Shown here: positions 1,264 through 29,998 of the stretch, piece after piece
How the letters are laid out: each line of letters begins with the position of its first letter
Numbering within the stretch: the first letter of the stretch is position 1
Source of the DNA: a virus
Lineage: Duplodnaviria > Heunggongvirae > Uroviricota > Caudoviricetes
DNA: 38,984 bases
Reading direction: 5' to 3' (one strand)
IMG/VR virus record: IMGVR_UViG_2690316241_000009
Translations under genes and position numbers: made by a program
The notes under the pieces: model-generated
Seen by the model: only the letters and a program-made list of their open reading frames with translations
What the model was told of the DNA's origin: nothing
Databases searched by the model: none

Positions 1264-2157
1264 CTATTTCCAGTTACAAGCAGCTTGAAGTGGTTTTAGC
1301 GCGTTTGACAGGCCGTTTAAATTGAAAGTTGCACTTACAGGGCTCTCATTATAAGGAGTTATTTTTGTATACATTTTGTTTGAGTTGGCTAGTTTTCGGA
1401 TGAAATCAATGTCATTACCTTTATAAAAAACAGCCTTTGTATCTGTAGATACTAGCCAGTTTCGCTCAACTGCTTTCTGTTTATCAAGACGATAAAGCAT
1501 GCTGGTTTGTTCAAGGCCTAAATATACATCCCAACTAAGAAATACTTCGGTTTTCTTTTCTCGGCAAGCTATAAACAGAGTAGGAGTAACCGCTTCTCCA
1601 AATGGAGTTCTGATATAATCATCACTTTCTAACGATAAAATTACATTTTTCGAATCATCAATTGGCGATGTAGTAATGGATGTGTGCCATTTTCCTACAT
1701 CTGTGGCTTTCTCTAATTTTGATTCAGCTTGAACAGCTTTATCCTGTGGGAATAGTTTATCGTAGCAGTTTAGTCTGGCTTCTTTATCATTTTCTGCTCG
1801 GCATTTAGATATCTCAGAAAGATTTGGTTGCTGAGCCTCTGTTGTTACTGGCTTTTCCGTTTTAGATTTTGAGTTTACAGATGGAGTAAATGTTGGAGAA
1901 AAAAAACGATCATAACAAGATAAACGTCTGTCATCATCTTTCTCATCAGGGCATTGATCTCTGCTTTCGAATTTTTCAGCAACTTTCGTTCGAGTCGGTT
2001 GTATTGACTTATCGTAACAAGAAAGTCTGTCTTTATTATTTTCTATTGCTCGGCACTGGAGTACTGCATTGAAGTTATTATGTTCAGTTGCTGCGTGAAC
2101 AGGCAGTACACTAATTGATATAAATGATGCACCTATAGAAAAAATTATATTTTTCAT
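1264..2157 (-). CDS. Secreted protein with three Cys-containing repeats, unknown function
   Basis: N-terminal signal peptide (MKNIIFSIGASFISISVLPVHA). Three copies of a C-x(n)-RLxCYD[KR] repeat followed by a ~150-aa C-terminal domain. AT-rich relative to flk. Confidence 0.6.
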   Translation of the reverse strand: MKNIIFSIGASFISISVLPVHAATEHNNFNAVLQCRAIENNKDRLSCYDKSIQPTRTKVAEKFESRDQCPDEKDDDRRLSCYDRFFSPTFTPSVNSKSKTEKPVTTEAQQPNLSEISKCRAENDKEARLNCYDKLFPQDKAVQAESKLEKATDVGKWHTSITTSPIDDSKNVILSLESDDYIRTPFGEAVTPTLFIACREKKTEVFLSWDVYLGLEQTSMLYRLDKQKAVERNWLVSTDTKAVFYKGNDIDFIRKLANSNKMYTKITPYNESPVSATFNLNGLSNALKPLQAACNWK

Positions 2158-2161
2158 TTTG

Positions 2162-2494
2162 TTATCCTTTTGGTTTAGTAAGAAACACTAAAATTCCGAT
2201 AATGATATCGCCAATAACCCATAAACTTCCAATGGTAATTAAACCTAAGCCTGTACCAATAACTACACCGGCTTTTTCGGCATCGGATGTTGCATTATTT
2301 ATTATTTCACTAGTGCCTCCCAGTCCAACTAAAAGCGTATAGATCATAAAAATATTAAATAATATAAAAATCCACTTAATGAGCTTTCCAAAAAATGAAC
2401 GCTTAAGTTTTTTTATTTGTTTACCGCAAGCAGGGCAATACAATGCTGAATCGCTCACCTCTTTCTGGCATTCAGGACATTTGATTAATGCCAT
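2162..2494 (-). CDS. Zinc-ribbon membrane protein, unknown function
   Basis: N-terminal CPECx(n)CPAC zinc-ribbon motif followed by two hydrophobic helices. Sits 5 bp upstream of the 1264..2157 gene, so probably co-transcribed. AT-rich. Confidence 0.6.
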   Translation of the reverse strand: MALIKCPECQKEVSDSALYCPACGKQIKKLKRSFFGKLIKWIFILFNIFMIYTLLVGLGGTSEIINNATSDAEKAGVVIGTGLGLITIGSLWVIGDIIIGILVFLTKPKG

Positions 2495-2896: not shown

Positions 2897-3086
2897 AGCA
2901 CTTGCTCCTTTTCCGGAGAGGCGCTAACCTTTCACTTGCTTAGGGTAGACGGTTAGGGCCTCGGTTAAACAAAAGTGTTTTCCGGGGCCTTTCCACATCT
3001 GGCCTTCGGGTATTCCCTCCGACCATCAGCCGAAAGGCACCCGCGCGTAATCTATCGCTTTTTTGTTACTCCGGCAATTCTGCTTG

Positions 3087-3347
3087 TTAATTCTTAGGTA
3101 AAGGCAAACTCATCTGATTGTTTCCCCTGTGTGAAGCTGGTAGCTCATGCCACGGGATACCTTCTGAAGAGTGAACGCCGGAGGCGTGTTTCGATGTGAA
3201 TTTATGGAAAGCTTCCAGTGTTGAGAAGCATACGCCGCATTCCAGATTGTTACACTGGTAATATTTTTGCCGCACGGTGTTTGAATCATTTTCCGGACGA
3301 CTTGTGCGGATACGGGCAGATGCGGCACAAAGCGGACAACGGAACAT
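3087..3347 (-). CDS. ogr: Ogr/Delta-family zinc-finger late-gene activator
   Basis: Starts MFRCPLC and has the CxxC...CxxxxC pattern with conserved RTSR and YYQC, matching P2 Ogr. Lies at the prophage end, transcribed outward as in P2. Confidence 0.85.
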   Translation of the reverse strand: MFRCPLCAASARIRTSRPENDSNTVRQKYYQCNNLECGVCFSTLEAFHKFTSKHASGVHSSEGIPWHELPASHRGNNQMSLPLPKN

Positions 3348-3538: not shown

Positions 3539-4561
3539 ATGGGAAGAGATATAACGCTGTACCCTAAAAAAGCAACTAGAAACGAACTTAAAAATTACCT
3601 TGAAAATTTAGGTTTTAAAAGGTGTAAACATTTGTGGGAATGGCCCCAAGGAACGTTGAATTACTCTTGGTTTGATGATACGGACTTCAAATCTACAGAT
3701 GGAGTTTCGGCTGATATATATCCTGTTTCAAATGACGAACTACACATATCTGGTAATAAATGGGCATTGCATGTGCGTAATTTATATAGCGCTAGTTGGC
3801 ATGATGTAAAAATGCTTAATGATGTTCTAAAAGGCGCACGGAGTCTTTTTGGTGGAACACTTATAGGTGATTATGGGAAAAATAGGTACGCTCCTCTATG
3901 GAAGGATTCTAGTAGTCCGATCAGTCGTGGCATTTCTTCAATATTTAATCATGTCCATCATGAGATTTCCGCTGTTAAACATGCCTTACCTGAACCTTCT
4001 ATTAAATTAAACCTACCGGAAGATGGCGGCTTATCCGAATACTTTGATTACATGCAATGTATGGATCCCAGTAGAGTTATATATAATGGATTAGTACCTT
4101 TTGCGGTTGCTATGTTTGAATATTTTTTCTCTAGAGCTTTTCAAATACTTATAAAGTACGATCCTTTCGCAATAGCAAAAAGAACATCGTATAAGCAAAA
4201 AGTTGATTTTGATATTCTGCTTGAGATAGAGAAAGGAAATATTTCAATAGAAAGTGTTATTGCAAGAAATTACACTTTTCAAAACTTAACCCACCTAAAT
4301 AAAGCATATAAAGAGTGGCTGGATATAGATGTGAGAGCGATTCTTTATAAGAAAAAAAGAATTGGAAAATCAGTTGATTTTCTTGAGAATCGAATTTCTG
4401 AAATCATACAATATAGACATGGGATAGTTCATCACTTTGAGTTGGATAGGACCTTAAATCGGGATGGATATATTCATATATTAGATGCGATAGAAAAAAG
4501 CATAATTGAATTTATCCATTACATAGAAGGCAAATACAAATTTAAATTAAATGCGTATTAA
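3539..4561 (+). CDS. AT-rich cargo protein (340 aa), candidate HEPN-like abortive-infection effector
   Basis: Inserted between ogr and D on the opposite strand, with a strongly AT-rich promoter region (3348..3538). C-terminal YRHGIVHH fits the HEPN R-x4-H motif. No P2 counterpart. Confidence 0.6.
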   Translation: MGRDITLYPKKATRNELKNYLENLGFKRCKHLWEWPQGTLNYSWFDDTDFKSTDGVSADIYPVSNDELHISGNKWALHVRNLYSASWHDVKMLNDVLKGARSLFGGTLIGDYGKNRYAPLWKDSSSPISRGISSIFNHVHHEISAVKHALPEPSIKLNLPEDGGLSEYFDYMQCMDPSRVIYNGLVPFAVAMFEYFFSRAFQILIKYDPFAIAKRTSYKQKVDFDILLEIEKGNISIESVIARNYTFQNLTHLNKAYKEWLDIDVRAILYKKKRIGKSVDFLENRISEIIQYRHGIVHHFELDRTLNRDGYIHILDAIEKSIIEFIHYIEGKYKFKLNAY

Positions 4562-4586
4562 GCAATCAACCTTACATAGGGATGAC

Positions 4587-4611
4587 AAAGTCCGCTTCTG
4601 ACACGGAGCGG
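4587..4611. terminator. Hairpin between the convergent cargo gene and D
   Basis: gtccgc...gcggac stem in the 120-bp gap between two convergent stop codons. Confidence 0.4.
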
Positions 4612-4681
4612 ACCGTCGTTTATGTTTAATTCTATACTGTAAACTTGCCAGTTTAAGTCTGAGCTAATATGTCTAAGTTGC

Positions 4682-5791
4682 TCACTCTGTTTCTGCTATC
4701 CATTCCGGGATTTTTGCCTCAAGCTCAAGCTGTGTGGTAAAGCCGCTGTTATCAATGGTGTGCTCGGCTTTTGCAATAATCCAGTCCTGATTATCAATCT
4801 CGCTTTTAAAGCCTGTTACCGTGCCATGCATTTCGGGGTAGAGTTCTGCGCGTCCGCGTGCCAGCATGATGGAGAATGATGCGGCTCCGCGTTGTAGCTG
4901 CTGCCACTTTGCCGCCGCTGCGCGTCTTGCTGCCTGCTCGTTCTGATAAGTCTTGCGTAACACAAACACATTGCCTTCCGCGCCTTCCATATAATCACCT
5001 TCACGGCTGCTGCTTTTCTCCTTTTTGGGTTTTGGCGGTTTGCGGCGTTTCACGCTGACTTTTTTCTTTTTCCCGTAATTAAGATCAAGCCAGTAAGCGC
5101 GTACCCCCGTATACGCCTCGCGGTCAGCAATGCGGAACTGATGGCGATCGCCGCTGCTGCGTGTGATGGCGAACGATGGCAACGGCTGGCCCTGTGCGTT
5201 CACGCCACCGCCGGGCATGATGAATAACAGATTACCGCTTTTTACCGTGGTGATTGCGCCCAGCATTTCCGCCATGCGCGTAAGGAAGGACATGTCACTT
5301 TCTTCGGTCTGGTCGGCGTGGTCGATTTCGATATGCATCAGCATTTCGCTGATTTGCGGTTTCAGACCGTACCGATGAGCGATGGCGGATACCACACGCT
5401 CAACGGTCACATCATGCCAGGACACCTCACGTTTAACGTTAAATTCATCCCGAAAATCTGCGCTTCTGGCTGAAACAGTCAGCCTGTCCGGCGGTCCTTC
5501 GTGTGCGATTTCATCGACAATGTAAGAGCCTTTTTCTGTCAGCGGTTCGCCTTTCCAGCCAATGAGAACCGTCAGGCGCGCGCCCCGTGGCGGTAGCTGC
5601 AACTGACCATCCGCATCATCCAGCGTGATGGTGAGCTGGTCCGCTTCAAATCCCCGGTTGTCGGTCAGTGACAGGCTCATCAGGCGCTCTGCCACGCCTG
5701 ACAGCGTTTTACCCTCCGCGAGAATATCAAAATCCGGCATTTTCACGGGGTCTGTGCTCTGACTGAGCAATTGCATGGTGGTGTCGGTCAT
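4682..5791 (-). CDS. D: Tail protein gpD
   Basis: Matches P2 gpD along its length (MPDFDILAEGKTLSGVAERLMSLSLTDNRGFEADQL..., EGDYMEGAEGNV..., GFTTQLELEAK). Start chosen at MTDTT (5791) because a GGGAGGG Shine-Dalgarno precedes it; the ORF track extends to 5812. Confidence 0.9.
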   Translation of the reverse strand: MTDTTMQLLSQSTDPVKMPDFDILAEGKTLSGVAERLMSLSLTDNRGFEADQLTITLDDADGQLQLPPRGARLTVLIGWKGEPLTEKGSYIVDEIAHEGPPDRLTVSARSADFRDEFNVKREVSWHDVTVERVVSAIAHRYGLKPQISEMLMHIEIDHADQTEESDMSFLTRMAEMLGAITTVKSGNLLFIMPGGGVNAQGQPLPSFAITRSSGDRHQFRIADREAYTGVRAYWLDLNYGKKKKVSVKRRKPPKPKKEKSSSREGDYMEGAEGNVFVLRKTYQNEQAARRAAAAKWQQLQRGAASFSIMLARGRAELYPEMHGTVTGFKSEIDNQDWIIAKAEHTIDNSGFTTQLELEAKIPEWIAETE

Positions 5792-5947
5792 CTTTCCCTC
5801 CCTGTGCGGCATGGTCGCATGTGCGTGCGGAGGGGGTTACTGCTTTTTGTTGTCGCCGGGTCGGGAGAACGGCGCAGGGGTGAGATTACGCGCGTGGTGG
5901 GTGATGATTGTTGCCGAATCATTTAACGGATACAAGGGGCTGAAGCT

Positions 5948-7132
5948 ATGAGTGAAACTCGTTTTCATGGTGCCCGTGTTACGGAAAATACCGACCTGGT
6001 AACAGCGATTAACGATGTTGATTCCAGCGTTATCGGTATCGTGGCAACGGCGGATGATGCGGACGCGAAGCTGTTCCCGCTGAACAAGCCCACACTGCTG
6101 ACCCGCGTCAATGACGTGCTGGGAAAATGCGGGACAACGGGGACGCTTTATCGTGCGCTTAAGGCCATCGCAGACCAGGTGAGCACAAAGGTGATCGTCG
6201 TTCGCGTGGCTGAACACAAAGAAGAAAACGGAAAGACGCAGGATCAACTGGTTATCGGTGGTTCTGAATCTGACGGCAGCTATACGGGGATGTATGCGCT
6301 GCTTGTTGCAGAGCAGGATGAAAGCATCGGATACCGTCCGCGTATTCTGGCCGCGCCGGAGCTGGACACGGAGGCGGTGACAAAATCCCTGTGCGTGATT
6401 GCGGGTAAACTGCGCGCGTTTGTGTATGCCGCATGTCATGGTTGTAACACGATGGCTGAGGCGATTACCTACCGCCAGAAATTCAACGAACGTGAGGTGA
6501 TGCTCTTATGGCCTGACTTCATCGCCTACAACCCGAAAAGTGGCAAAAACGAAACGTTCCCCGCGCCTGCTTATGCGTGCGGCCTTCGTGCGTACATTGA
6601 CCATGAGCAGGGCTGGCACAAATCGCTGTCCAACGTTCCGGTTAAAAATGTGCTGGGGATGTCGAGGCATGTGTTCTGGTCGTTGCAGGCCGAAGACAGC
6701 GATGCCAACAGCCTCAACAACAAAGAAATCACGACCATTATTCGTCGCAACGGGTTCCGCTTCTGGGGCAACCGCACACCGGAAACGAACGCCTACATCT
6801 TTGAGGTGTATACCCGAACCGCACAGGTGCTGGCTGATTCAATTGCGGAAGCGCAGTTTGAAACCATCGACAGTCCACTGACGCCTGCGAACGTGAAAGA
6901 TGTTATCAGTGCCATCAGGGCAAAACTGGATTCACTGGTTACTGCCGGGAAACTGATTGGGGCGTCGTGCTGGTATGACGTGGTGGATAACGGCACCACG
7001 AATTTACGTCAGGGGCGTGTGCGTATTCGCTACAAATATACGCCTGTTCCCCCGCTGGAAGACATGGAGCTTTACCAGTCGTTTACTGATGAATTCTTTG
7101 GTCCCGCATTTGCGGTGCTGGGAGGTGCCTGA
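5948..7132 (+). CDS. FI: Tail sheath protein gpFI
   Basis: Matches P2 FI (FPLNKP, LRAFVYAA, WPDF, EQGWHKSLSNV, GFRFWGNRT, YTPVPPLE). AGGGG Shine-Dalgarno upstream. Confidence 0.9.
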   Translation: MSETRFHGARVTENTDLVTAINDVDSSVIGIVATADDADAKLFPLNKPTLLTRVNDVLGKCGTTGTLYRALKAIADQVSTKVIVVRVAEHKEENGKTQDQLVIGGSESDGSYTGMYALLVAEQDESIGYRPRILAAPELDTEAVTKSLCVIAGKLRAFVYAACHGCNTMAEAITYRQKFNEREVMLLWPDFIAYNPKSGKNETFPAPAYACGLRAYIDHEQGWHKSLSNVPVKNVLGMSRHVFWSLQAEDSDANSLNNKEITTIIRRNGFRFWGNRTPETNAYIFEVYTRTAQVLADSIAEAQFETIDSPLTPANVKDVISAIRAKLDSLVTAGKLIGASCWYDVVDNGTTNLRQGRVRIRYKYTPVPPLEDMELYQSFTDEFFGPAFAVLGGA

Positions 7133-7644
7133 TGGCTGTACCAAAACATCTTCGCTTTTTTACGTTGTTTGTGGATGGTGAAAACGAAGTGGGTAAAGTG
7201 ACATCCGTCACGCCACCCAAACTGACGCGCAAAACCGACAGCTATCGTGGTGGTGGCATGATGGGGGCGGTAAGTATTGATCTCGGTCTGGACGACTCCG
7301 CGCTTGATGCGAGTTTTGTCATGGGGGGAGCTGTTCGTGCGCTGTTCCTTAAATATGGCGGCACGATTGACGGCACGCTGCTGCGTTTTGCGGGTGAATA
7401 CTACACCGATGCAGAAAGCGATCTGTATGAAATCGAGATGCGCGGGCGTGTGACGGAAATTGATATGGGGGAGGCCAAACAGGGCGAAGCCACATCACAC
7501 ACTTACGCTGTCAAAAACACCTACTACAAGCTGAGCGTTAACGATCGCCCGCTGTGGGAAATCGACCTGTTGAACCACATCTACCGGAAGGACGGCAAGG
7601 ACATTGTGCCTGACCGCATTCGTTCCGCGCTTGGGCTTGGCTGA
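7132..7644 (+). CDS. FII: Tail tube protein gpFII
   Basis: Matches P2 FII (KLTRK..YRGGGM, DLGLDD, MRGR..EIDMGEAKQGE). Confidence 0.9.
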   Translation: MAVPKHLRFFTLFVDGENEVGKVTSVTPPKLTRKTDSYRGGGMMGAVSIDLGLDDSALDASFVMGGAVRALFLKYGGTIDGTLLRFAGEYYTDAESDLYEIEMRGRVTEIDMGEAKQGEATSHTYAVKNTYYKLSVNDRPLWEIDLLNHIYRKDGKDIVPDRIRSALGLG

Positions 7645-7699
7645 TAAGTAATATGCAGGCGGCGCAGTGCGTCGCCTCTGACTGAAAAGGAGACAACTG

Positions 7700-8074
7700 A
7701 TGAAAGATATCGATACTGAAACCCGGAATAACACCGTAGCGGATGATGTGACGGCAGGTGAGGATATGGCTGTCGAACGTGGTGTAAAACTTTCCCGGCC
7801 AATTGAGCGTGGTGGCGAAAAAATCACATATGTGGAGATCACCGGGGCTATTGAGCAGGCGGGATCCCTGCGTGGTCTGTCGCTGTCTGATGTGCTGAAT
7901 CTGAAAGCGGATACCATGTTCACGCTGTTGCCTCGCGTGACCTCGCCACGACTGGATGAAGTGATGATTAAAAAAATGTCGTCACGCGATTTTATTCAGT
8001 TGTGCGCTGTGGCTGTAAATTTTATGAGCGAGCCAGACTCTGGCGCGAAGAGCGTGCAGGAGACGGCAGCGTAA
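7700..8074 (+). CDS. E: Tail assembly chaperone gpE
   Basis: Sits between FII and T with an AAGGAG Shine-Dalgarno. A -1 frame ORF overlaps its 3' end, the gpE/E' arrangement. Confidence 0.8.
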   Translation: MKDIDTETRNNTVADDVTAGEDMAVERGVKLSRPIERGGEKITYVEITGAIEQAGSLRGLSLSDVLNLKADTMFTLLPRVTSPRLDEVMIKKMSSRDFIQLCAVAVNFMSEPDSGAKSVQETAA

Positions 8075-8238
8075 TCACCCTGGTGTGCTTTGAGCACATC
8101 GAAGATCTGGTGGCGGATATTGCCGCCATTTTTAACTGGTCGCCCGCCGAAATCTTCATGATGACGCCCGGCGAAGTGGTTAGCTGGCGCGAGCGGGCGG
8201 CACTTCGCAGCGGGAATGCAGACAATGAAGACTCTTGA
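7700..8238 (+). CDS. gpE+E' fusion made by programmed -1 frameshift (predicted)
   Basis: The -1 frame opens immediately after a stop at 7969-7971 and runs to 8238, overlapping the T start. Candidate slippery sites in the E frame are the A7 run at 7970-7976 and A_AAT_TTT at 8017-8023. Confidence 0.55.
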
Positions 8239-11038
8239 TATCCGGGTCGCTTTCAGCGCCGTTGACAGGCTGACCCGGCCTGCCGAAAACGCCCGCCGCC
8301 TGATGGGGCAGTTTGGTGACTCCATCCAGCGAACGCAGGGGGCGATCAAAAATCTCGAGCGTCAGGCGCGTTCATTTGAGCGCGCCCGTGACGCTGTCAG
8401 TAAAGCGGATGCGGGCATCGTGAAAGCACGACGCCAGCTTAACGCCCTTAATCAGTTACAACGCACGGGTACAGTGCTCAGCGAAAAACAACAAAAGCTG
8501 ATGCAGCAGTTAAGCACCCGGCTTGAACGCCTGAATGAATCGCGCACACGGGAAATTCAGAAAATGCGGGAACTTGGCGGAGAGCTGAAACGCCACGGCA
8601 TTTCCCTGACAGGCAGCGATAACACCATCCAGCAGGCCATCAGACGCACCGAACAGTACAACAACCAGCTTGAACGCGAACGGCAGGCGCTTGCGCGTGT
8701 AACGCGGGCGCGTGAGCGGTATTCGCGCGCGCAGGAAACCGCGGGAAAACTGAAAACAGGTGGTGCACTGGCAACAGGTGCGGCAGCGGCGGGCGGCTAT
8801 GCTGCCGGGCGTTTTTTGCAGCCCGCGATTGGGTTCGGGAAAGAGATGTCCCGCGTTCAGGCACTGACGCGAATCGACAAAAACAGCCCACAGTTTAAGG
8901 CGCTGCGTGAGCAGGCGTTAAAACTTGGCTCTGAAACGCAGTTCACCGCTGGAGATGCCGCCAGTGGACAGGCATTTCTTGCAATGGCTGGTTTTACTCC
9001 GCAGGCCATTCAGGCTGCGCTTCCCGGCGTGCTGAGCATGGCAACGGCTGGCGGTATGGATCTCGGCGAGACGGCGGATATTGGCTCAAATATCCTGACG
9101 CAGTTCGGCCTCTCTGCTGACCAGATGGACCGGGTTGGCGACACGCTTACAGCGGCGTTTACCCGTACCAACACTGACCTTCGCGCGCTGGGCGAAACCA
9201 TGAAATATGCAGGTCCGGTGGCGGGTAAGCTGGGAATATCGCTGGAGCAGGCCGCTGCGATGGCGGGCGTGCTGGCGAATATGGGCATCAGAGGGAGTGA
9301 TGCCGGGACGGCAATGCGTGCCAGCCTGGCTCGTCTGGCATCACCGCCAAAGGCGGCAGCAGAGGCGCTGAAAGAGCTGGGTGTGGCTGTCTCTGACGCG
9401 AACGGCAAAATGCGCCCGATGGAGGATGTACTGGCCGACCTTTATAAAGCCACCCGCAAATACGGGGAAGTTGACCGGGTATCGTTCTTTAAGGACATTG
9501 CCGGAGAAGAGGCTTTCACATCGTTTATGGCGCTCGTTGATGCAGCGGGTGACGGCTCCTTACCCAAACTGAGAAAAGAACTTGAAGGCGCGCGCGGTGA
9601 GGCTGAACGCACAGCAAAGGTTATGGACAACAACCTTGACGGCGATCTGAAATCACTCGGCAGTGCATGGGAAGGGTTGCGCATCCGCATTGCAGATCTG
9701 ATTGACGGTCCGCTGCGTTCTGTCACGCAGTGGCTCACGCGGGTGGTATCAAAGGTGACGGCGCTGGCGCAGGCCCATCCGGCACTGACGCGCCAGCTAC
9801 TGATTGCAGGTGGGGCATTGCTGGCGATGACTGCAACGGTCGGCTCGTTGTCGTTGGCTATTGGTGTGCTTGCTGGCCCGCTGGCAAAACTGCGTCTTGG
9901 CTTTTCCCTCCTGACCGGATCAATGAATGCTGTCAGGCTCCTGCCAGCACTATGGGGAATGGTGACGGGTTCCGTTTCGTTACTGGGGGGCGCTATCGGG
10001 GCGCTGTTCAGCCCGGTCGGATTGATTGCTGCTGCGTTTGTGGCTGCGGCGGTTCTCATCTGGAAATACTGGGAACCCATCAAGGCGTTTTATGCAGGGG
10101 TGTTCAGTGGGATTATGGAACGGCTGGCTCCGTTGCGCGAAACCTTTGAACGGTTCGGTCCAGTTTTTGATGTCGTGCGCGATGGGATTATTCAGGTCTT
10201 TAACTGGTTTAAATCGCTGCTGTCACCGATGGAGTCCAGCAAGGAAACGCTGGATAAATGTACCAGTGCTGGCGAGGTATTCGGCAGGGTACTCGGTGGA
10301 GCGATAGAGCTTGTCCTGACGCCAACAAAAGCATTGATGGATTCACTGGCGTGGATACTTGAAAAGCTCGGAGTGCTTCCGGATGAAGCGGAACGGGCGA
10401 GAAAGAAAATAGAGAACGCTTCAAAGGCTCCTGTAATGTGGGAATGGGATCCGGTTCTCAAGAAAATGGTTCAGAAACCATGGACTCCCGGCCCGGCCCC
10501 GTCAGATAAGGTCGACGACAAAAAAGGCGATAAACCCAGAGACAACAAACCGCTCACAGACAACAATACCGGTACGCTACGCAGACTCAGCAAAATTGCT
10601 GATAACACAGGTAAGCTGGTTGATGAGACGAAAAAACGCATTGGCCCCGGCGATATTGTCTTTAAGAACCTGCCCCGCGCACTTGCTGTTCGTGGGGAGT
10701 GGCAGGAGCGGAAGATTGCGCAGGTCAGTAAGCCTGCCCCCGCAATTACTATCACACCCGTGGTTCCGGCTCCGCTGCCTCCGGCGCTGGTCCCTGTTGT
10801 TGCGGCCAGCTCCCGCCCGGTGGCGGAGGCTATACGATCGCCAGTGGCATCAGTTCCTGCAACTTCCCGTAACCGGGAGCCTGTTGCCTCCGGATTTGGC
10901 GGTGAAATTCATGTTCATCTGCATAACGTTGTTACACAGAATCCCCGCGAACTGGCGAAACTGATTGGCGAAATGGTCAGGGCAGAAATGGAACGGCGCG
11001 CCCGTGCCGGGCGTGGCAGTTTTTACGATAAAGATTGA
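8216..11038 (+). CDS. T: Tail tape-measure protein gpT
   Basis: 940-aa protein with a coiled-coil N-terminus, a Gly/Ala-rich hydrophobic central region and a Pro-rich C-terminus, in the T position after E/E'. Confidence 0.9.
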   Translation: MQTMKTLDIRVAFSAVDRLTRPAENARRLMGQFGDSIQRTQGAIKNLERQARSFERARDAVSKADAGIVKARRQLNALNQLQRTGTVLSEKQQKLMQQLSTRLERLNESRTREIQKMRELGGELKRHGISLTGSDNTIQQAIRRTEQYNNQLERERQALARVTRARERYSRAQETAGKLKTGGALATGAAAAGGYAAGRFLQPAIGFGKEMSRVQALTRIDKNSPQFKALREQALKLGSETQFTAGDAASGQAFLAMAGFTPQAIQAALPGVLSMATAGGMDLGETADIGSNILTQFGLSADQMDRVGDTLTAAFTRTNTDLRALGETMKYAGPVAGKLGISLEQAAAMAGVLANMGIRGSDAGTAMRASLARLASPPKAAAEALKELGVAVSDANGKMRPMEDVLADLYKATRKYGEVDRVSFFKDIAGEEAFTSFMALVDAAGDGSLPKLRKELEGARGEAERTAKVMDNNLDGDLKSLGSAWEGLRIRIADLIDGPLRSVTQWLTRVVSKVTALAQAHPALTRQLLIAGGALLAMTATVGSLSLAIGVLAGPLAKLRLGFSLLTGSMNAVRLLPALWGMVTGSVSLLGGAIGALFSPVGLIAAAFVAAAVLIWKYWEPIKAFYAGVFSGIMERLAPLRETFERFGPVFDVVRDGIIQVFNWFKSLLSPMESSKETLDKCTSAGEVFGRVLGGAIELVLTPTKALMDSLAWILEKLGVLPDEAERARKKIENASKAPVMWEWDPVLKKMVQKPWTPGPAPSDKVDDKKGDKPRDNKPLTDNNTGTLRRLSKIADNTGKLVDETKKRIGPGDIVFKNLPRALAVRGEWQERKIAQVSKPAPAITITPVVPAPLPPALVPVVAASSRPVAEAIRSPVASVPATSRNREPVASGFGGEIHVHLHNVVTQNPRELAKLIGEMVRAEMERRARAGRGSFYDKD

Positions 11039-11044
11039 GGAGTC

Positions 11045-11539
11045 ATGGCCATGATGATGATCTACGGCATGTTTGTTTTTGAGCTGCGCACATTGCCGCA
11101 TCAGCAGTTACAGCAAAACAAAAGCTGGCGGCATGTGAAAAATGAACGCGTTAACCGTTCAGCAAGCTGGCAGTATATCGGCGCAGGTGATGATCGCATC
11201 GTGCTTTCCGGCGTGCTTTATCCTGAAATTACAGGTGGCGAAGTGTCGCTTTCGTTGCTGACCACGCAGGCATATACAGGACGCCCCTGGCCTCTGATTG
11301 ATGGTGTCGGGCAGATTTACGGCATGTATGTACTGACTGAAACGAATACGACCCGTTCCGAGTTTGATCGCTACGGCAAGGCGAAAAAGATAGAGTTTTC
11401 ACTGACTCTTGAACGCTGCGATGAGGATTTGCGGGAACGCCTGCAATCCTCATCGTTCAGTGATATGCTGTCCGGCTTCAAAGATAAGGTCACATCATCC
11501 CTTAACAGCGCGGCCAGCTCCGTTAAAGGGCTGTTCTGA
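11045..11539 (+). CDS. U: Tail protein gpU
   Basis: Starts MAMMMIYGMFVFEL, resembling the P2 gpU N-terminus (MMMVLGLFVF). GAGGAG Shine-Dalgarno upstream. Confidence 0.85.
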   Translation: MAMMMIYGMFVFELRTLPHQQLQQNKSWRHVKNERVNRSASWQYIGAGDDRIVLSGVLYPEITGGEVSLSLLTTQAYTGRPWPLIDGVGQIYGMYVLTETNTTRSEFDRYGKAKKIEFSLTLERCDEDLRERLQSSSFSDMLSGFKDKVTSSLNSAASSVKGLF

Positions 11540-11542
11540 TTT

Positions 11543-11584
11543 AACACAAAAACCGCTAATGGCCAGATTAGCGGTTATTTTGTT
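11543..11584. terminator. Bidirectional intrinsic terminator between U and the invertase gene
   Basis: Perfect 10-bp stem (aaccgctaat / attagcggtt) with a 6-nt loop, A-run on one side and T-rich on the other, between two convergent genes. Confidence 0.7.
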
Positions 11585-12176
11585 TACTCTTCTCAATTGT
11601 TCCACTTGATTCTCCTGCGGGGTGGTAACGATAAATTGTCGATATACCAATGCTGTAAATTATTGCCAGTTGTTTTCTGTCGTGACCGTTTTTAATCAGC
11701 CTTGCTATTTGCTCATGCTGTTCTTTTGTCAGCTTCGGTCGACGTCCGCCTGTGCGCCCCCGTGCGCGCGCTGCCGCCAGTCCGGCCAGTGTACGTTCAA
11801 CAATTAATTCACGTTCCATTTCAGCCAGGGCACCCATCACGTGGAAGAAAAAACGCCCCATTGGAGAAGATGTATCTATGCTGTCGGTCAGACTGCGAAA
11901 ATTAATCCCTCGCTCCCGTAGTTCTCCGACGAGAGAAATCAGATGTTTCATGCTTCGCCCAAGGCGATCCAGTTTCCAGACAACCAGCGTGTCACCTTTT
12001 TGAAGCTGCTTTAAAGCGCGTTTTAATCCCGGTCGGTCTGTCTTTGTTCCGCTTAATTTATCTTCAAATATTTGTTCACATCCTGCACAAACAAGAGCGT
12101 TTCGTTGCAGGTCTGTATTCTGGTCATTTGTTGATACCCTTACATAACCAATCAGCACACTGAATCTCCCGTCCAA
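11568..12176 (-). CDS. Serine-recombinase DNA invertase (Hin/Gin/Pin/Cin family)
   Basis: N-terminus LIGYVRVSTNDQNTDLQRNAL carries the catalytic Ser motif. GDTLVVWKLDRLGRS and FFFHVMGALAEMERELIVERTLAGL match Hin/Gin closely. C-terminal HTH present. Confidence 0.9.
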   Translation of the reverse strand: MDGRFSVLIGYVRVSTNDQNTDLQRNALVCAGCEQIFEDKLSGTKTDRPGLKRALKQLQKGDTLVVWKLDRLGRSMKHLISLVGELRERGINFRSLTDSIDTSSPMGRFFFHVMGALAEMERELIVERTLAGLAAARARGRTGGRRPKLTKEQHEQIARLIKNGHDRKQLAIIYSIGISTIYRYHPAGESSGTIEKSKQNNR

Positions 12177-12212
12177 AAGCGCAAATCATGCCATGCAGGC
12201 CGGAAACGGCCA

Positions 12213-12238
12213 TTATCTAAAACCTCGGTTTACAGGAA
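12213..12238. repeat. gix/hix-like 26-bp inversion site, invertase-proximal
   Basis: ttatctaaaacc-TC-ggtttacaggaa, close to the Gin/Hin crossover consensus. Reverse-complement partner at 15165..15190 matches at 24 of 26 positions. Confidence 0.8.
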
Positions 12239-12283
12239 ACGGTAAACAAGGCTGGTAACGCCGTTCAGCGTTCCGGCGATAAA

Positions 12284-13126
12284 ATGACCGGAGAACTGAA
12301 AATTGGAACGATGAATGCGCTGCGAATTTTTAATGATGCCTTCGGTCTTATTTTCCGCCGTTCAGAAGAGTCCCTTCATTTCATCCCTACGGCTGAAGGA
12401 CAAGGCGAAAACGGTGATATCGGCCCATTAAGGCCATTCGCTATAAATCTAAGAACAGGTGCTATATATGTCAGCCACGGGGCCAAAATTGAAGGAGGTC
12501 TAGCTATTGGTGCTACTGATAACGCACTGGGTGAAAACTCCATTGTTCTGGGAGATAACGACACCGGATTTAGGCAAGATGGAGATGGTATTATTAGCTT
12601 CTATTCAAATGGTTCGCGCATCGGACATATTGATGGGTTAGGATTACATCTTTATAAAGATATTGAATCTAATTGCAGCAATTTTAGATTAAAAAGTAAT
12701 TACCGCCACCACATTACATTCACCAACGAAGACGGAAGTATTCGTATGTTTTTGTGGAAAGATAACGGTGGTGATGGTGTTCATATTAATAACGGTTCAG
12801 ATGGTGGTGGTGATTTCATTTTTAAAACAGATGGGGGATTTGCGCTGGGAAGTGGTGCGCAAGTTGCGTCTAGTGGCGATATTTATGGTTCAGTGTGGGG
12901 AAACAACTGGTTAAGCACATGGCTGCATAATCATGTCGTTCGGGATATTCGTCTTGGCAGCATTGAATATAAAAACGTATGGCGCGACTACGGCTTTGGC
13001 GATGCGTCAGGTTATGTTTTAACAGCCGCAATTAACGGCAATGCGGATGATCTTGTCGACACTGTTGCCAGAAGGCCAATTCAGAAATTGATTGGGGGAA
13101 TATGGTACAACGTGGGGAGTGTTTAA
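12284..13126 (+). CDS. Alternative tail-fibre C-terminal cassette (silent in this orientation)
   Basis: The frame is open back to the crossover site and encodes ...LGLQETVNKAG..., paralleling ...LGLQETVNQAS... in H. C-terminus ([18 protein letters not shown]) resembles the H C-terminus. No promoter or N-terminus of its own. Confidence 0.7.
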
Positions 13127-13127
13127 G

Positions 13128-13655
13128 ATGATGCACTTAAAAAATATTACTGCTGGCAACCCTAAAACAAAAGAACAATACCAGCTAACTGAAAAAGCGG
13201 GCGTGGTATGGCTCTTTTGCGAAGATGGCAAAAACTGGTATGAGGAACAAAAGAATTTTCAGCCAGACACCATAAAAATTGCTTACGATGAGAACAACAT
13301 CATCGTTGCTGTCAGTAAAGACGTTTCAACTATTAATCCTGAAGGGCTAAGCATAGTTGAAGTTCCTGATATTACGGCAAATCGTCGCGCAGACAATAAC
13401 GGAAAATGGATGTTTCTGTATGGTAAAGTAGTAAAGAGGGAATATACAGAACAGGAACTGCAACAACAGGCCGAATCACAAAAGGCCGCGTTGCTTTCTG
13501 AAGCAGAAAGCGTTATTCAGCCACTGGAACGCGCTGTCAGGCTGAACATGGCAACAGATGAGGAGCGTAGCCGACTGGAAGCATGGGAGCGCTACAGTGT
13601 TCTGGTCAGCCGTGTGGATACGGCAAATCCTGAATGGCCACAAAAGCCTGAATAA
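13128..13655 (+). CDS. Alternative tail-fibre assembly chaperone (Tfa/gpG-like)
   Basis: Starts [21 protein letters not shown], identical over about 20 residues to the other tfa and then diverging. Follows the alternative fibre cassette. Confidence 0.8.
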
Positions 13656-13683
13656 AAATTAAGGCCCGATAGCGGGCCTTGTC

Positions 13684-14217
13684 TCATTCTGGTTGTTCTG
13701 GAAACGTTACTGGCAGGCTGGAGGTGTCTGTAGATTCGACTTTCTGCGCATAGAGCATCCACTCGGTTAATTTTTGTTTATTCTCGTCGGAAATGATGCC
13801 CAGCCGTAGCTGTGAGTCCCATAGCTGGGTTTTATCCCTGACAAGTTGCAACAGGCTTTGCTTTTCATTTTCCGCCTGTTGCCTCTGCTCTTCCCCGGTA
13901 TAAGTTCGCTTTATCACTGCGCCATCTTTGAACATCCATTTACCCGAAATATCAGCCCGGCGATTTGCTGTAATATCAGGTAATTCAACGACGCTTGCGC
14001 CTTCCGGATTAATTGCTGAAACATCCTTTTCAATACAAATAATAACGCCGTTATGGTCATAGGCCATTTTCAATGTGTCTGGCCGGAAATTCTTTTGTTC
14101 CTCATACCAGTTTTTTCCATCATCTGAATAAAGCCATTTGATGTTAAATTGCTTTGTTAGCTGGTATTGCTCTTTTGTTTTAGGATTGCCAGCAGTAATG
14201 TTTTTTAAGTGCATCAT
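13684..14217 (-). CDS. G: Tail-fibre assembly chaperone (Tfa/gpG-like), currently expressed orientation
   Basis: Starts [22 protein letters not shown] and lies immediately downstream of H on the same strand. Confidence 0.85.
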   Translation of the reverse strand: MMHLKNITAGNPKTKEQYQLTKQFNIKWLYSDDGKNWYEEQKNFRPDTLKMAYDHNGVIICIEKDVSAINPEGASVVELPDITANRRADISGKWMFKDGAVIKRTYTGEEQRQQAENEKQSLLQLVRDKTQLWDSQLRLGIISDENKQKLTEWMLYAQKVESTDTSSLPVTFPEQPE

Positions 14218-14219
14218 AA

Positions 14220-16310
14220 TTAAATACTCCCTGCGTTATACCACGTTCCATTAATGCAATACTGAATTGGCCTTGCCTGAGTTGTATCAATTAATTCATC
14301 ACGGTTTCCGTTAACTGAACCAGTAACGACATAACCTGACCTGTCAGACCAGCCAGGACCATTCCATGTCTGAACAGATGACAGACCGCCAAGGCGAATA
14401 CCTGTAATAAACCTTGAGTTACATTCTGCCTGCGTATATGCACCAACATCTCCCGCAGAGGGTTTGCGTGTTGTGGTGTAAAACTCTGACCAGTTAGCTT
14501 CAAAGCCATAACCATCACGCGCTGAACGATAAAAGATACCGCCATTTCTGTAATTCACGCGGAACTGTACAGCAGGGCAACTCCCCGCATTCATATTAAA
14601 GTGGAGGATTAATGTCGATGCGCCACTGATATCTGCATTATAAACGCCGCTATTCCAGTTCCAGCCAACAGCTTTATCATTTGCAACCCTGCTTCCTGTT
14701 TGCCCTAAAGCAAATGCAGGCTGCTGGTTTTTCGTGTTGTAGTCTCGTCGCCAGCCAGGAGCGTAAGCATCACCATGATTAATATAAGTGAATTGAGCGT
14801 TAGTGATTCCGCCGCCGCTGGACGTACTCGGCGTGGTAACGCGTATGGTCATTGCGCCGCGAGTGCCAATAACTTCCACCACAGCACCTGCAAGACAAAT
14901 ATTTCCGCAACCTGTATCTGTAATGACCTTATTGTTTGCATAAGCCCATGAGCCTTTGCACATCCAGTAAGGATGGTTAAATGCTCCCTGACTCTCCAGC
15001 CACGAAATAAATTGCGCGGTTGTCCAGACCTGACTATCACCACCAATATTCAGCCATGCGCTATATGCGCGGCAGGCACCAATATTTTTGGTGAAGGTAT
15101 CTTTTCCTGGAATATCTGCGCCGTTCTGGTTTTTCTGTAATGCGCCAGAAGCCTGATTTACCGTTTCCTGTAAACCGAGGTATTCGATAACAGCGGCAAC
15201 GGTCGATTTCGCAAGAATATCCCGCCCGACTTCTGTCAGGGTTGCCAAACTGGCAACGTCATTCCCCGTAAAATACGGAAACCTGTCTGCCGCAGTAACA
15301 AGCCCGGCCAGCGCCGTCAGGGTGGCATCTTTCGGTTGCTTACCCGCAAGCGCGTTAGTCATGGTGGTCGCAAAATTCGGGTCATTGCCCAGCGCCGCAG
15401 CCAGTTCGCTCAGCGTGTTTAGTGCATCAGGTGACGAATCTACAAGTGCGGCAATCGCGGCCATAACGAAAGCCGTGCTTGCGATCTGGGTACTATTAGT
15501 CCCCTGTGGCGCTGTTGGTGTTGTTGGCGTTCCGGTCAGTGCCGGGCTGTTTAATGGTGCTTTCTTGTTCGTTTCATCCATTACCGCCTTAACAGCTTTT
15601 GGTGTTGCTGCCAGCGTTTCAGACGTGCTGTTCGTGGCGCTACTGAGCTGAACAATCCCTTTTTGTGTTGTGGTGGCGTTCTGGGCGGTATATTTCCCGT
15701 CAGCCAGGTCATATGCAGCCTTAACTGCTTTCGGTGTTGCGGCCAGTGTTTCTGATTCACTGTTAATTGCACTGCTTAACTGAGTAAAACCTTTTGCGGT
15801 CAGCGAGGCGTCCGGGTGATGTCGTGACTGTTCGTGCTCTGAGATTTTATCATCCACATATTTGCGGGTTGCCAGAACCACAGACGGGTCGATTTTCAGC
15901 GTGATGGCTTCGGTGTTCGTGACAACCAGAATCATGCGGATAGTCTGGGTACGACCACTGCCTTCCTGCAACTGCGGTTTGTACGTTTCCGGGCAGTTTG
16001 CCACCGCAATGAGTACACCTTCATCATCATAAAGACCAATCTCACGGATCCAGAATCCTCCCTCGTTTTCAGGGATGATTTGCTCCGCAATAATCTGGCT
16101 CTGATTGTTAGGGTCAACACTCAGAAGATTCAGCGGTGCAATGCGTTTCTGGTTAATCAGTTTTGTTTGTGCAGGGTCTGGTGTTGGTAACACACCATTT
16201 GCATCACCAACGGCCATTTGCGTCAGATTCAGCTTACTGCCGAGCATCGTCGCGTTAGCCAGTCGTGCCGCGCCCTGATTAGTCAGAATGGCGTAGTATT
16301 TCACTGTCAT
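14220..16310 (-). CDS. H: Tail fibre protein gpH
   Basis: 696-aa protein; N-terminal third resembles P2 H and contains tandem tail-fibre repeats. The variable C-terminal part (from about residue 374) lies inside the invertible segment. Confidence 0.9.
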   Translation of the reverse strand: MTVKYYAILTNQGAARLANATMLGSKLNLTQMAVGDANGVLPTPDPAQTKLINQKRIAPLNLLSVDPNNQSQIIAEQIIPENEGGFWIREIGLYDDEGVLIAVANCPETYKPQLQEGSGRTQTIRMILVVTNTEAITLKIDPSVVLATRKYVDDKISEHEQSRHHPDASLTAKGFTQLSSAINSESETLAATPKAVKAAYDLADGKYTAQNATTTQKGIVQLSSATNSTSETLAATPKAVKAVMDETNKKAPLNSPALTGTPTTPTAPQGTNSTQIASTAFVMAAIAALVDSSPDALNTLSELAAALGNDPNFATTMTNALAGKQPKDATLTALAGLVTAADRFPYFTGNDVASLATLTEVGRDILAKSTVAAVIEYLGLQETVNQASGALQKNQNGADIPGKDTFTKNIGACRAYSAWLNIGGDSQVWTTAQFISWLESQGAFNHPYWMCKGSWAYANNKVITDTGCGNICLAGAVVEVIGTRGAMTIRVTTPSTSSGGGITNAQFTYINHGDAYAPGWRRDYNTKNQQPAFALGQTGSRVANDKAVGWNWNSGVYNADISGASTLILHFNMNAGSCPAVQFRVNYRNGGIFYRSARDGYGFEANWSEFYTTTRKPSAGDVGAYTQAECNSRFITGIRLGGLSSVQTWNGPGWSDRSGYVVTGSVNGNRDELIDTTQARPIQYCINGTWYNAGSI
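15165..15190. repeat. gix/hix-like 26-bp inversion site inside H
   Basis: ttcctgtaaacc-GA-ggtattcgataa on the plus strand; the inner half and centre are identical to the reverse complement of site 12213..12238. It encodes IEYLGLQE in H. Confidence 0.8.
15584..15791. repeat. Tandem ~132-bp coding repeat inside H
   Basis: Two copies encoding G(F/I)(T/V)QLSSA..SETLAATPKAVKA.. (residues ~174-250), a known tail-fibre repeat type. Confidence 0.6.
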
Positions 16311-17807: not shown

Positions 17808-18158
17808 TTACTCCTTCAGCGTGATGGTTAACTCAACATTCTGCATGGTCTGCATGACAGTGCCCGACAGCGTCACCCCGGCGCGGCCTCCCGCTTTCCA
17901 GACAACGTCGATGGCGTCCAGGGCAATGCGGGGTTCCCATCGTGTCAGCGCAATCACGGCAGCACTCATGCATTGCAGACGAGTTGTGTTATTCATGGGT
18001 TCGTCAATCAAATCAGGCACAAGGCTGCCATATTCCCGTCGCATAACCCGGCTTGCCAGCGGGGTGATCAGGATGTCCCTGACTGACTGTTTCAGGTGCT
18101 CCATATCGTTCAGGTTTCCCGTCCCGTCCGGATTCATTCCTGTGTAGCGGGTTGTCAC
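17808..18158 (-). CDS. W: Baseplate wedge protein gpW
   Basis: 116-aa protein in the W position between V and J, matching P2 W in size. Confidence 0.85.
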   Translation of the reverse strand: MTTRYTGMNPDGTGNLNDMEHLKQSVRDILITPLASRVMRREYGSLVPDLIDEPMNNTTRLQCMSAAVIALTRWEPRIALDAIDVVWKAGGRAGVTLSGTVMQTMQNVELTITLKE

Positions 18159-24640: not shown

Positions 24641-24794
24641 AGTTTTTGCCCCTCTGACTGGTTCTTCAGTCATGATGGCAAAGCGTAACAGGCTGATACA
24701 AAGGGCTTTTGTTGTAAGAAAACAGTCAGAACAGGGGGTTAAGGAGAACGGTTTCGCGCGCGGGTAATCTTCCTGTAATTACTCAGGGGGAGCA

Positions 24795-29981: not shown

Positions 29982-29998
29982 CTATATCATCCTTAAAT

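Follow-up and report, generated by a model that had tools for sequence, protein, structure and literature searches.

Gene content of the locus

The window, that is, the whole stretch of 38,984 nucleotides analysed here, is by sequence similarity a prophage of the P88-like group (Xuanwuvirus, Peduoviridae). Nucleotide comparison with Xuanwuvirus phages covered its late region (positions 3000–27900, 24.9 kb), which is ~94–96% identical to them over 80–86% of its length and collinear on a single strand with P88, P884B11, 500465-2 and PhiSM. Gene identities were assigned from Pfam profile matches, while orientation and identity to phage P2 were obtained by searching the window with all P2 proteins (tblastn). 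With these two approaches the complete set Q, P, O, N, M, L, X, R, S, V, W, J, I, H, G, FI, FII, E, T, U, D and ogr was found. The features around the block FI–U are:

3087–3347, minus strand: ogr, late-gene activator (Ogr/Delta zinc finger; Pfam Ogr_Delta, E 1e-12; 38% identical to P2 Ogr)
3539–4561, plus strand: low-GC moron of 340 aa between ogr and D (GC ~34%), outside the inversion
4590–4613: terminator-like hairpin between the moron and the D 3' end (9-bp stem on the plus strand, shorter match on the minus strand)
4682–5791, minus strand: D, baseplate hub / late control D (Pfam Phage_GPD; 48% identical to P2 gpD)
5792–5947: divergent D/FI control region, 156 bp
5948–7132, plus strand: FI, tail sheath (Pfam sheath domains; 45% identical to P2 FI)
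7132–7644, plus strand: FII, tail tube (Pfam Phage_tube, E 2e-45; 42% identical to P2 FII)
7700–8074, plus strand: E, tail assembly chaperone (Phage_TAC_7; 35% identical to P2 gpE)
~8074–8229, plus strand: E' frameshift extension, placed from its position in the P88 annotation (P88 gp47/gp46)
8216–11038, plus strand: T, tape measure (Pfam PhageMin_Tail, E 2e-58; 33% identical to P2 gpT)
11045–11539, plus strand: U, tail protein (Pfam Phage_P2_GpU, E 6e-39; 46% identical to P2 gpU)
11551–11576: bidirectional intrinsic terminator common to U (plus) and invertase (minus), 10-bp stem, T-runs on both strands
11568–12158, minus strand: serine DNA invertase of the Gin/Cin/Pin type (Pfam Resolvase and HTH_7)
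13684–14217, minus strand: G, tail-fibre chaperone (Pfam Caudo_TAP), in P2-collinear orientation
14220–16310, minus strand: H, tail fibre (Pfam Phage_tail_fib; 52% identical to P2 gpH), in P2-collinear orientation

Some of these assignments need a comment. The Phage_TAC_7 match of E is weak (21.7 bits, below the cut-off of 25), and the sole Pfam match of the moron, HEPN_RiboL-PSP, is sub-threshold; a PADLOC search of the moron gave no match. The open reading frame of D extends to 5812 and its best start is the ATG at 5791, which is preceded by a GGGAGGG Shine–Dalgarno sequence and coincides in alignment with the D starts of relatives. For the invertase the mechanical reading frame reaches 12176, and its probable start is the GTG at 12158, giving MLIGYVRVS.

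Orientation of the FI–U block

In the P2 record the genes FI-FII-E-E'-T-U-D-ogr are read in the same direction as V-W-J-I-H-G. P2 (Peduovirus) has FI-FII-E-T-U-D as one rightward operon co-oriented with H-G, whereas in the window FI–U are split from D. The tblastn search places all late genes of the P2 plus strand on the minus strand of the window with the exception of FI, FII, E, T and U, which lie on the plus strand, so that the block is flipped relative to P2. The best match of P2 G was an alternative plus-strand copy within the invertible segment. The original prediction, made from the letters of the sequence only, had proposed exactly this inversion of FI through U, with H, G, D and ogr on the minus strand, and Pfam, tblastn and the P2 record all agree with it. 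Its coordinates hold throughout, including the 156-bp spacer (exact, given the D start at 5791).

Since FI–U (5948–11539) alone among the P2 homologues is found on the plus strand, D is divergent from FI. At the other end U converges with the invertase at 11551–11576. The bidirectional terminator postulated there is present: its stem (AACCGCTAAT/ATTAGCGGTT) has an A-run on one side and a T-run on the other, is detected on both strands and overlaps the stop codon of the invertase. Outside FI–U the order is the same as in P2, and the common gene set shows 31–60% protein identity (79% for G). The position held by the invertase is occupied in P2 by fun(Z), and the P2 lysis genes, B and the P2 morons gave no tblastn match in the window.

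Distribution of the inverted order

The synteny comparison with P2-like relatives that had been suggested along with the original prediction reveals the inverted order as the norm of the lineage. P88 and PhiSM, both functional phages, have the same order as the window, and in P88 and further Xuanwuvirus members (P884B11, 500465-2, 520873, Citrobacter phage Shae_phiSM) it reads ogr and D (minus), FI, FII, E, T and U (plus), invertase (minus), invertible fibre segment, and G and H (minus). Differences between these relatives and the window are confined to cargo, namely the 340-aa moron, the variable parts of the tail fibre, and IS insertions in some relatives. Salmonella phages SEN4 and SEN5 (Senquatrovirus) and Klebsiella phage Kp4871-3 (Reginaelenavirus) belong to other genera and carry other cargo, but they show the FI–U block inverted as in the window with D proteins that are 63–73% identical. 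The P2 order was found in P2, Fels-2, Burkholderia phiE202 and Mannheimia PHL101.

Our survey of loci from genomes and phages extended over ~25 genera of Enterobacterales. Among 80 genome loci 57 are inverted, 16 are of the P2 type and 7 are truncated. The classifiable ones split perfectly according to the identity of D to that of the window (at least 60% in inverted loci, 47–54% in P2-type loci): in 57/57 loci that reach 60%, FI...U lies on the other strand than D, and the two diverge from a spacer of ~150 bp. With the phage loci included, every classifiable locus with such a D is likewise inverted. In complete E. coli genomes the D/FI junction is contiguous in 1352 of 5426, about a quarter. 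A chimeric query representing the un-inverted D/U junction gave no joined match in the same 5426 genomes (0/1414 genomes against 1352 with the observed junction); only the one orientation was found in these natural populations.

These data leave a practically nil probability for an assembly artefact, i.e. a block mis-oriented when the source genome was assembled, which the original prediction had considered. The identical junction recurs in all those complete genomes and in P88, PhiSM and SEN5, plaque-forming phages that were sequenced independently (PMC5285337, PMC6456863); the alternative junction was never found, and the regulatory architecture of the D/FI spacer is conserved. The other suggestion, a lineage-specific rearrangement, was right in kind, but the lineage is very large and old; it spans at least three ICTV genera and hosts from ~25 bacterial genera, and a quarter of complete E. 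coli genomes carry it. It had also been stated that the arrangement would be unremarkable if it were the norm among related phages. As it is, the inverted order is, on this comparative evidence, normal, ancient and fixed in a large P2-like group around P88, and hence ordinary. It is also already known in the sense that the published and annotated genomes of P88, PhiSM and SEN4/5 contain it. The papers on P88, PhiSM and SEN4/5 do not comment on how the FI–U block is oriented or ordered or on its being inverted, the Burkholderia P2-like paper does not bear on it, and the literature found under the genus names consists of taxon lists with no explicit description of an inversion.

The DNA invertase and its crossover sites

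The neighbouring invertase was a candidate for the agent of the rearrangement, as it adjoins the U end of the block and serine invertases are able to act on degenerate sites. The original prediction had raised a possible inversion by it at secondary sites and suggested a search for degenerate gix-like sequences at the junctions 5792–5947 and 11540–11567. Only two gix/cix-type sites occur in the window:

12213–12238, plus strand: gix/cix-type crossover site at the right end of the invertible tail-fibre segment
15165–15190, minus strand: partner site inside H, in inverted orientation (2 mismatches to the first site; 0 expected by chance)

Both flank the tail-fibre segment 12213–15190, which would be all that the Gin-type invertase flips; the FI–U inversion would be unrelated to it. 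At the two junctions a degenerate gix scan returned best scores of 13–15/26, no better than 14–68% of random windows. A search for inverted repeats in 4000–15000 yielded repeats of the tail-fibre segment, the terminator hairpin and chance pairs only, with none pairing the two FI–U junctions, and the junctions themselves appear to serve as promoter and terminator, not as sites of crossover. The comparison with relatives points in the same direction. E. coli L004 and L005 and phage SEN5 are inverted yet lack an invertase; no invertase match was obtained in Kp4871-3 or in the majority of the 57 inverted loci. Fels-2 (Salmonella, Felsduovirus) resembles the window in that the slot between G and the F operon holds a Gin/Cin-type invertase with an invertible tail-fibre cassette, but its order is the canonical D-U-T-E-FII-FI, co-oriented with H-G; therefore the presence of an invertase does not go with the inversion. 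Together with the complete lack of the alternative orientation in the E. coli genomes, this makes it extremely improbable that the enzyme flipped, or still flips, the FI–U block.

Phylogeny and polarity of the inversion

With phiE202 and PHL101 as outgroups, trees of D, FI, FII and U, reconstructed by simple neighbour joining on tblastn segments without support values, unite all inverted loci in one clade that contains no P2-type member. This monophyly fits a single ancient inversion, and we infer such a single-event history, though recombination among P2-like phages could blur it. In the common ancestor of a large enterobacterial P2-like clade the pF late promoter together with the segment FI-FII-E/E'-T-U would have been inverted once, with one breakpoint between U and D and the other just upstream of the pF activator site. 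D would thereby have been severed from its operon, U would have come to end at a bidirectional terminator facing a variable moron/invertase slot, and the inverted order would then have been fixed, with no switching today.

The opposite polarity, with the inverted order ancestral and that of P2 derived, appears very improbable, even if the rooting relies on just two outgroup phages and neighbour-joining trees. Both outgroups (from Betaproteobacteria and Pasteurellaceae) have FI...U and D co-oriented, as do P2, Fels-2 and the 16 enterobacterial loci; the inverted loci are a single nested clade. Moreover, P2-type loci have U and D abutting or overlapping as one operon and do not possess the mirror-image -10 element upstream of pF that is described below.

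Conserved elements of the D/FI spacer

The length of the D/FI spacer is conserved, with a median of 153 bp among 62 distinct relatives. Three elements are predicted in it:

5851–5868: Ogr-type activator site TGT-N12-AGA (centre 5859.5), aligning with the perfect TGT-N12-ACA / GTTGT-N12-ACAAC of relatives
5902–5907, plus strand: FI (pF) -10 hexamer GATGAT (TSS ~5914), 43.5–48.5 nt from the site centre
5811–5816, minus strand: D -10 hexamer GACCAT (TSS ~5804), the mirror of the FI -10, 43.5–48.5 nt from the dyad centre

A central site of the TGT-N12-ACA type is found with at most one mismatch in 58 of the 62 distinct spacers and perfectly in 36 of them. In the alignment of relatives the window carries the variant TGT-N12-AGA, an imperfect site that has AGA in place of ACA and agrees at 5/6 positions. 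Correspondingly, the canonical TGT-N12-ACA is absent from both the D/FI and the P/O spacer of the window, and its five matches window-wide are at chance level. The site centre lies 88.5 nt from the FI ATG, which is similar to pF of P2 (~83 nt); across the related spacers the medians are 82.5 nt to the FI ATG and 70.5 nt to the D ATG.

Anchoring the spacers on this site brings out a conserved pattern A..AT, on the FI side at +44.5 to +48.5 and on the D side in exact mirror position. On the FI side A2, A5 and T6 of the hexamer are conserved at 95–97%, in inverted and P2-type loci alike. Among 59 sequences of the inverted clade the D side has A2 in 95% and T6 in 90%, figures that partly reflect shared ancestry as related spacers are non-independent samples. 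The hexamers there vary (AATCAT, AACTAT, GACCAT, GATCCT, GACGAT) yet keep A2 and T6, and both together are present in the mirror hexamer of 90% of inverted spacers versus 12% of 16 P2-type controls. In P88 and SEN5 small "hypothetical proteins" annotated in the D/FI spacer fall on predicted promoter sequence.

A proposed mirror-image promoter for D

In P2, D is without a promoter of its own (PMC3931495; P2 record). That D has acquired its own late promoter in this lineage, as was originally supposed, gains comparative support from the conserved site and the conserved mirror -10. However, the promoter of D is likely to be a mirror promoter that uses the activator site of the FI operon, without a new control region of its own. 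The Ogr site of pF, which is dyad-symmetric, would now sit in mid-spacer between D and FI, with -10-like hexamers at mirror positions (5902–5907 for FI, 5816–5811 for D). Its distance to the predicted -10 elements fits the geometry of P2 late promoters on both sides (dyad ~55 bp upstream of the TSS); the consensus of these promoters and their dependence on Ogr are summarised in PMC3931495. With a central site and mirror -10 elements, Ogr bound at about -55 would activate both promoters. From this geometry we infer where transcription starts and that D depends on Ogr.

A model for such an arrangement exists in P2 itself, where according to the annotation one activator site (3057–3087) serves the divergent promoters pP (TSS 3016) and pO (TSS 3127); the geometry proposed for D/FI is the same. 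The corresponding region of the window is:

24641–24794: divergent late control region between P and O (154 bp with the start of O taken as the ATG 24640), TGT-N12-AGAAC at 24713–24732

The motif TTTTGTTGT-N12-AGAAC is central in the P/O spacer and is the same as in the D/FI region. Translation and the homologous start place the start of O at the ATG 24640, with a GAGGGG Shine–Dalgarno sequence. A start at 24673, with which the P/O geometry would be inconsistent, was rejected.

Alternatively, D could be driven by an independent promoter that does not share the Ogr site, either a constitutive sigma-70 promoter or one starting in the conserved CGCGCG block, the mirror symmetry being a coincidence. 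Some details speak for it: the D-side -10 of the window (GACCAT) is weak although the D-side half (TGT) of its activator site is the better half, and a conserved CGCGCGCG block sits between the activator site and the D -10. The predicted D leader measures only ~13 nt. Yet the D-side hexamer keeps the exact mirror distance of the FI -10 across ~59 diverged spacers and is absent in P2-type controls, and the product of D is a virion protein required at the late stage, as are those of the genes with which it once shared an operon. A sigma-70 consensus scan of 5792–5947 called no minus-strand promoter, an outcome that is expected of activator-dependent promoters. We consider an independent promoter unlikely, and think it rather probable that, after D was orphaned, the clade turned the unidirectional pF into a symmetric bidirectional promoter in which a new mirror -10 lets one Ogr site drive both FI–U and D. 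A bidirectional pF/D promoter is not described in the genome papers of P2-like phages that were searched (P88, PhiSM, SEN4/5, Burkholderia). For the account as a whole, a P88-like prophage with one ancestral inversion, a fixed order, and D and FI sharing an Ogr-activated site, our confidence is high.

Significance

The gene order per se is of little import, being found in published genomes and in roughly one in four complete E. coli genomes. As a clean binary synapomorphy that unites Xuanwuvirus, Senquatrovirus, Reginaelenavirus and many unnamed prophages versus the P2, 186 and Fels-2 type, the inversion is useful for the classification of prophages and for spotting mis-assemblies. Annotators should be cautious with the spacer "hypothetical proteins" of P88 and SEN5, which overlie predicted promoter sequence. 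What is new here is solely the apparent use by D of a mirror-image late promoter that has its activator site in common with the sheath operon. The D/FI spacer offers a testable case in which re-use of a symmetric activator site would bring an operon fragment back under control once a rearrangement has cut it off and, if this holds true, would be a natural and datable example of promoter capture via activator-site symmetry.

Gene map of the prophage and limits of the inverted block

The window contains an almost complete P2-like prophage which is an ordinary member of Xuanwuvirus. A tblastn search with every P2 protein placed Q and P, together with int and C at the right end, on the plus strand and O, N, M, L, X, R, S, V, W, J, I, H, D and ogr on the minus strand. 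The P2 record gives the opposite signs for these genes, which means that the prophage lies in reverse orientation as a mirror image of the standard P2 map. The sole exceptions are FI, FII, E, T and U. Since they are on the plus strand in both P2 and the window, they are inverted relative to the rest of the phage, as the original prediction had claimed. Pfam upholds the gene identities (E only by a weak match):

5948-7132, plus strand, FI (tblastn with the P2 protein, Pfam)
7132-7644, plus strand, FII (tblastn with the P2 protein, Pfam)
7700-8074, plus strand, E (tblastn with the P2 protein, weak Pfam match)
8216-11038, plus strand, T (tblastn with the P2 protein, Pfam)
11045-11539, plus strand, U (tblastn with the P2 protein, Pfam)

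D most plausibly starts at ATG 5791, which is preceded by a GGGAGGG ribosome-binding site and agrees with the aligned D starts of relatives; the D/FI spacer therefore comprises 156 bp (5792-5947) up to the FI ATG. At the other border U ends at 11539 and the invertase ORF at 11568, with one element between and across these ends:

11551-11576, both strands, hairpin of a bidirectional terminator (10-bp stem, T-runs on both strands)

The coordinates of the original prediction all proved accurate. Among the remaining late genes, S (18733-19377) and V (18155-18736) overlap at 18733-18736 and leave neither intergenic space nor an orf30-type insert. This phage seems to lack a counterpart of the separate pV promoter of P2, and O...S-V...G may constitute one long operon.

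Cargo genes are found at several positions. Between the portal gene Q and the replication gene A, the position of old/tin in P2, a low-GC (~31%) two-gene cassette is located on the minus strand (28284-30844). Its products are a D12 N6-adenine methyltransferase, with a PADLOC match to PD-Lambda-5_B (E 9e-122), and a 565-aa ATPase (AAA_15/AAA_21) that gives PtuA/AriA/GajA-like matches; together they probably form a PD-Lambda-5-type system for defence against phages. The genes ogr and D, directly adjacent in P2, are separated here by a low-GC ORF of 340 aa (3539-4561, plus strand), which converges with D at a hairpin (4590-4613). Its sole domain match is a sub-threshold HEPN_RiboL-PSP, PADLOC gave no match for it, and it may represent an uncharacterised moron (accessory cargo gene) with a role in abortive infection or defence. 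Left of ogr (1264-2494, minus strand) the prophage carries a VasI-domain (type VI secretion-associated) protein and a small zinc-ribbon protein; Citrobacter phage Shae_phiSM has this pair too, annotated there as "TagO".

Distribution and age of the inverted order

The closest phage matches are the Xuanwuvirus members P88, P884B11, 500465-2, 520873 and Citrobacter phage PhiSM, with which the late region 3000-27900 aligns on a single strand at 94-96% identity. In the annotations of P88 and PhiSM gene order and strands are identical to those of the window. Both phages are inducible and plaque-forming (PMC5285337, PMC6456863), thus the inverted arrangement is functional. A 1.2-kb probe spanning D|FI (coverage at least 80%) showed this junction to be contiguous, at 95-99% identity, in 1352 of the 5426 complete E. 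coli genomes searched. A chimeric probe for the un-inverted D|U junction was matched in one piece in none of the 1414 genomes holding the parts. An assembly artefact, one of the two explanations proposed originally, is excluded by these counts and by the collinearity of P88 and PhiSM. As the junction is common and no alternative state occurs, the FI-U block is fixed and does not switch. A degraded P88-like prophage was also observed in O157-type genomes (E. coli strain 143, locus L004, and matches H43-H44 of the junction search), with a D gene cut short by IS30, a frameshift in the tape-measure gene and replaced head genes; even so, these genomes still have the D|FI spacer and the FI-U block.

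For a broader view 80 loci, one genome per species, were chosen after D protein alignment, and FI, FII, T, U, D and ogr were placed by tblastn. The inverted order was found in 57 loci and the P2 order in 16, while 7 were truncated. D identity separates the two orders without exception: all loci with at least 60% identity to the window's D are inverted, and all those with 47-54% have the P2 order. Inverted loci come from ~25 genera, including Salmonella, Citrobacter, Klebsiella, Enterobacter, Kosakonia, Serratia, Pantoea, Erwinia, Pectobacterium, Brenneria, Edwardsiella, Hafnia, Yersinia, Morganella, Providencia, Xenorhabdus and Photorhabdus. SEN5 (Senquatrovirus) and Klebsiella phage Kp4871-3 (Reginaelenavirus) share the inversion, whereas in P2, Fels-2, Burkholderia phiE202 and Mannheimia PHL101 the block is co-oriented with D. 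Neighbour-joining trees were built for D, FI, FII and U, as simple distance trees lacking support values and with phiE202 and PHL101 as the only outgroups; in them the inverted loci form one clade with no P2-type locus inside. A single ancient inversion in the ancestor of these loci would be the simplest reading. The suggested lineage-specific rearrangement is thus correct at the level of a lineage, but it is not special to a few phages, being ancient, fixed and spread over ~25 genera. The synteny comparison with related phages gives the same arrangement as the norm, and on the original prediction's own terms it is unremarkable. One sampled contig labelled as Gram-positive (NZ_JBQPOM010000071.1, "Vagococcus sp. 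WN89Y") carries a prophage with 95-98% protein identity to the window phage, which probably reflects contamination or mislabelling of the assembly.

The invertase as possible cause

It had also been proposed that the invertase inverted the block at secondary sites. The window contains just two matches to its crossover site (12213-12238 and 15165-15190, inverted relative to each other), and these bound the usual invertible tail-fibre cassette, i.e., the H C-terminus and G versus alternative copies at 12284-13655. No inverted repeat common to both FI-U block junctions was found, and the search of these junctions for degenerate gix sites (crossover sites of Gin-type serine invertases) gave nothing above chance, with best scores of 13-15/26 that are equalled or exceeded by 14-68% of random windows. 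Relatives with an acetyltransferase moron in place of the invertase have the same inversion, as does SEN5 with nothing in this slot; in Fels-2 the slot is occupied by an invertase, yet the order is canonical. An origin by the invertase is rejected, as site, repeat and relative-genome evidence all speak against it. Between G and the F block lies a variable moron position, occupied by fun(Z) in P2 and by the invertase in the window.

The D/FI spacer and expression of D

In P2 the operon transcribed from the late promoter pF ends with D (P2 record), and late promoters carry a TGT-N12-ACA site for the activator Ogr (PMC3931495). We aligned 58 D/FI spacers and anchored them on this site; site counts refer to 62 distinct spacers and hexamer counts to 59. 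The following elements were recognized in the window:

5851-5868, Ogr-type site in the window's variant TGT-N12-AGA (spacer alignment)
5902-5907, plus strand, FI-side -10-like hexamer GATGAT (consensus nAnnAT, 43.5-48.5 nt from the dyad centre)
5816-5811, minus strand, D-side -10-like hexamer GACCAT, at the exact mirror distance

A site of this type (at most one mismatch) is present in 58/62 spacers and perfect in 36/62, often as GTTGT-N12-ACAAC. It is nearly central, its centre being a median of 70.5 nt from the D ATG and 82.5 nt from the FI ATG, compared with 83 nt from the FI ATG in pF of P2. In the D-side hexamer A2 is kept in 95% and T6 in 90% of spacers, the rest being variable. Among the 16 P2-type control loci, anchored on the pF site, A2 and T6 occur together in 88% on the FI side and in 12% at the mirror position. 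Transcription is predicted to start at ~5914 (FI) and ~5804 (D), each ~55 nt from the site centre; the annotated divergent promoters pP/pO of P2 (site 3057-3087, starts 3016 and 3127) have the same geometry.

The P/O spacer of the window is a near twin in size and design. The scaffold gene O probably starts at the homologous ATG 24640 (MTNEKK..., GAGGGG Shine-Dalgarno sequence) and not at the first ATG 24673, which makes this spacer 154 bp long (24641-24794). Its central site, TTTTGTTGT-N12-AGAAC (24713-24732), is of the same variant as in the D/FI spacer.

Because the central site and the mirror hexamers are conserved, with a geometry like that of pP/pO, we think that D is driven by a mirror promoter using the Ogr site of pF. 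This site would be common to two divergent promoters, serving the FI operon one way and D the other way. The claim that D has its own late promoter is supported in this predicted form. Most spacers of this clade also contain a conserved CGCGCGCG block between the Ogr-type site and the predicted D -10, which is degenerate in the window (TGTGCGTGCG, 5820-5829); CGCGCG-like runs also precede the -10 elements of FI (5891-5896) and P (24754-24761). Small "hypothetical protein" genes are annotated inside the spacer in P88 (gp50, 2529-2660 of locus L001) and SEN5 (SEN5_27, 11800-11952 of locus L087); these calls lie over the conserved promoter and activator elements and are unlikely to be real genes.

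Annotated genomes in public databases already show the inverted arrangement, which is the usual one in a large clade. No explicit description of the FI-U inversion or of a bidirectional D/FI promoter was found in the literature searched. Only the predicted shared D/FI promoter may be new, and this regulatory aspect is of modest, specialist interest.
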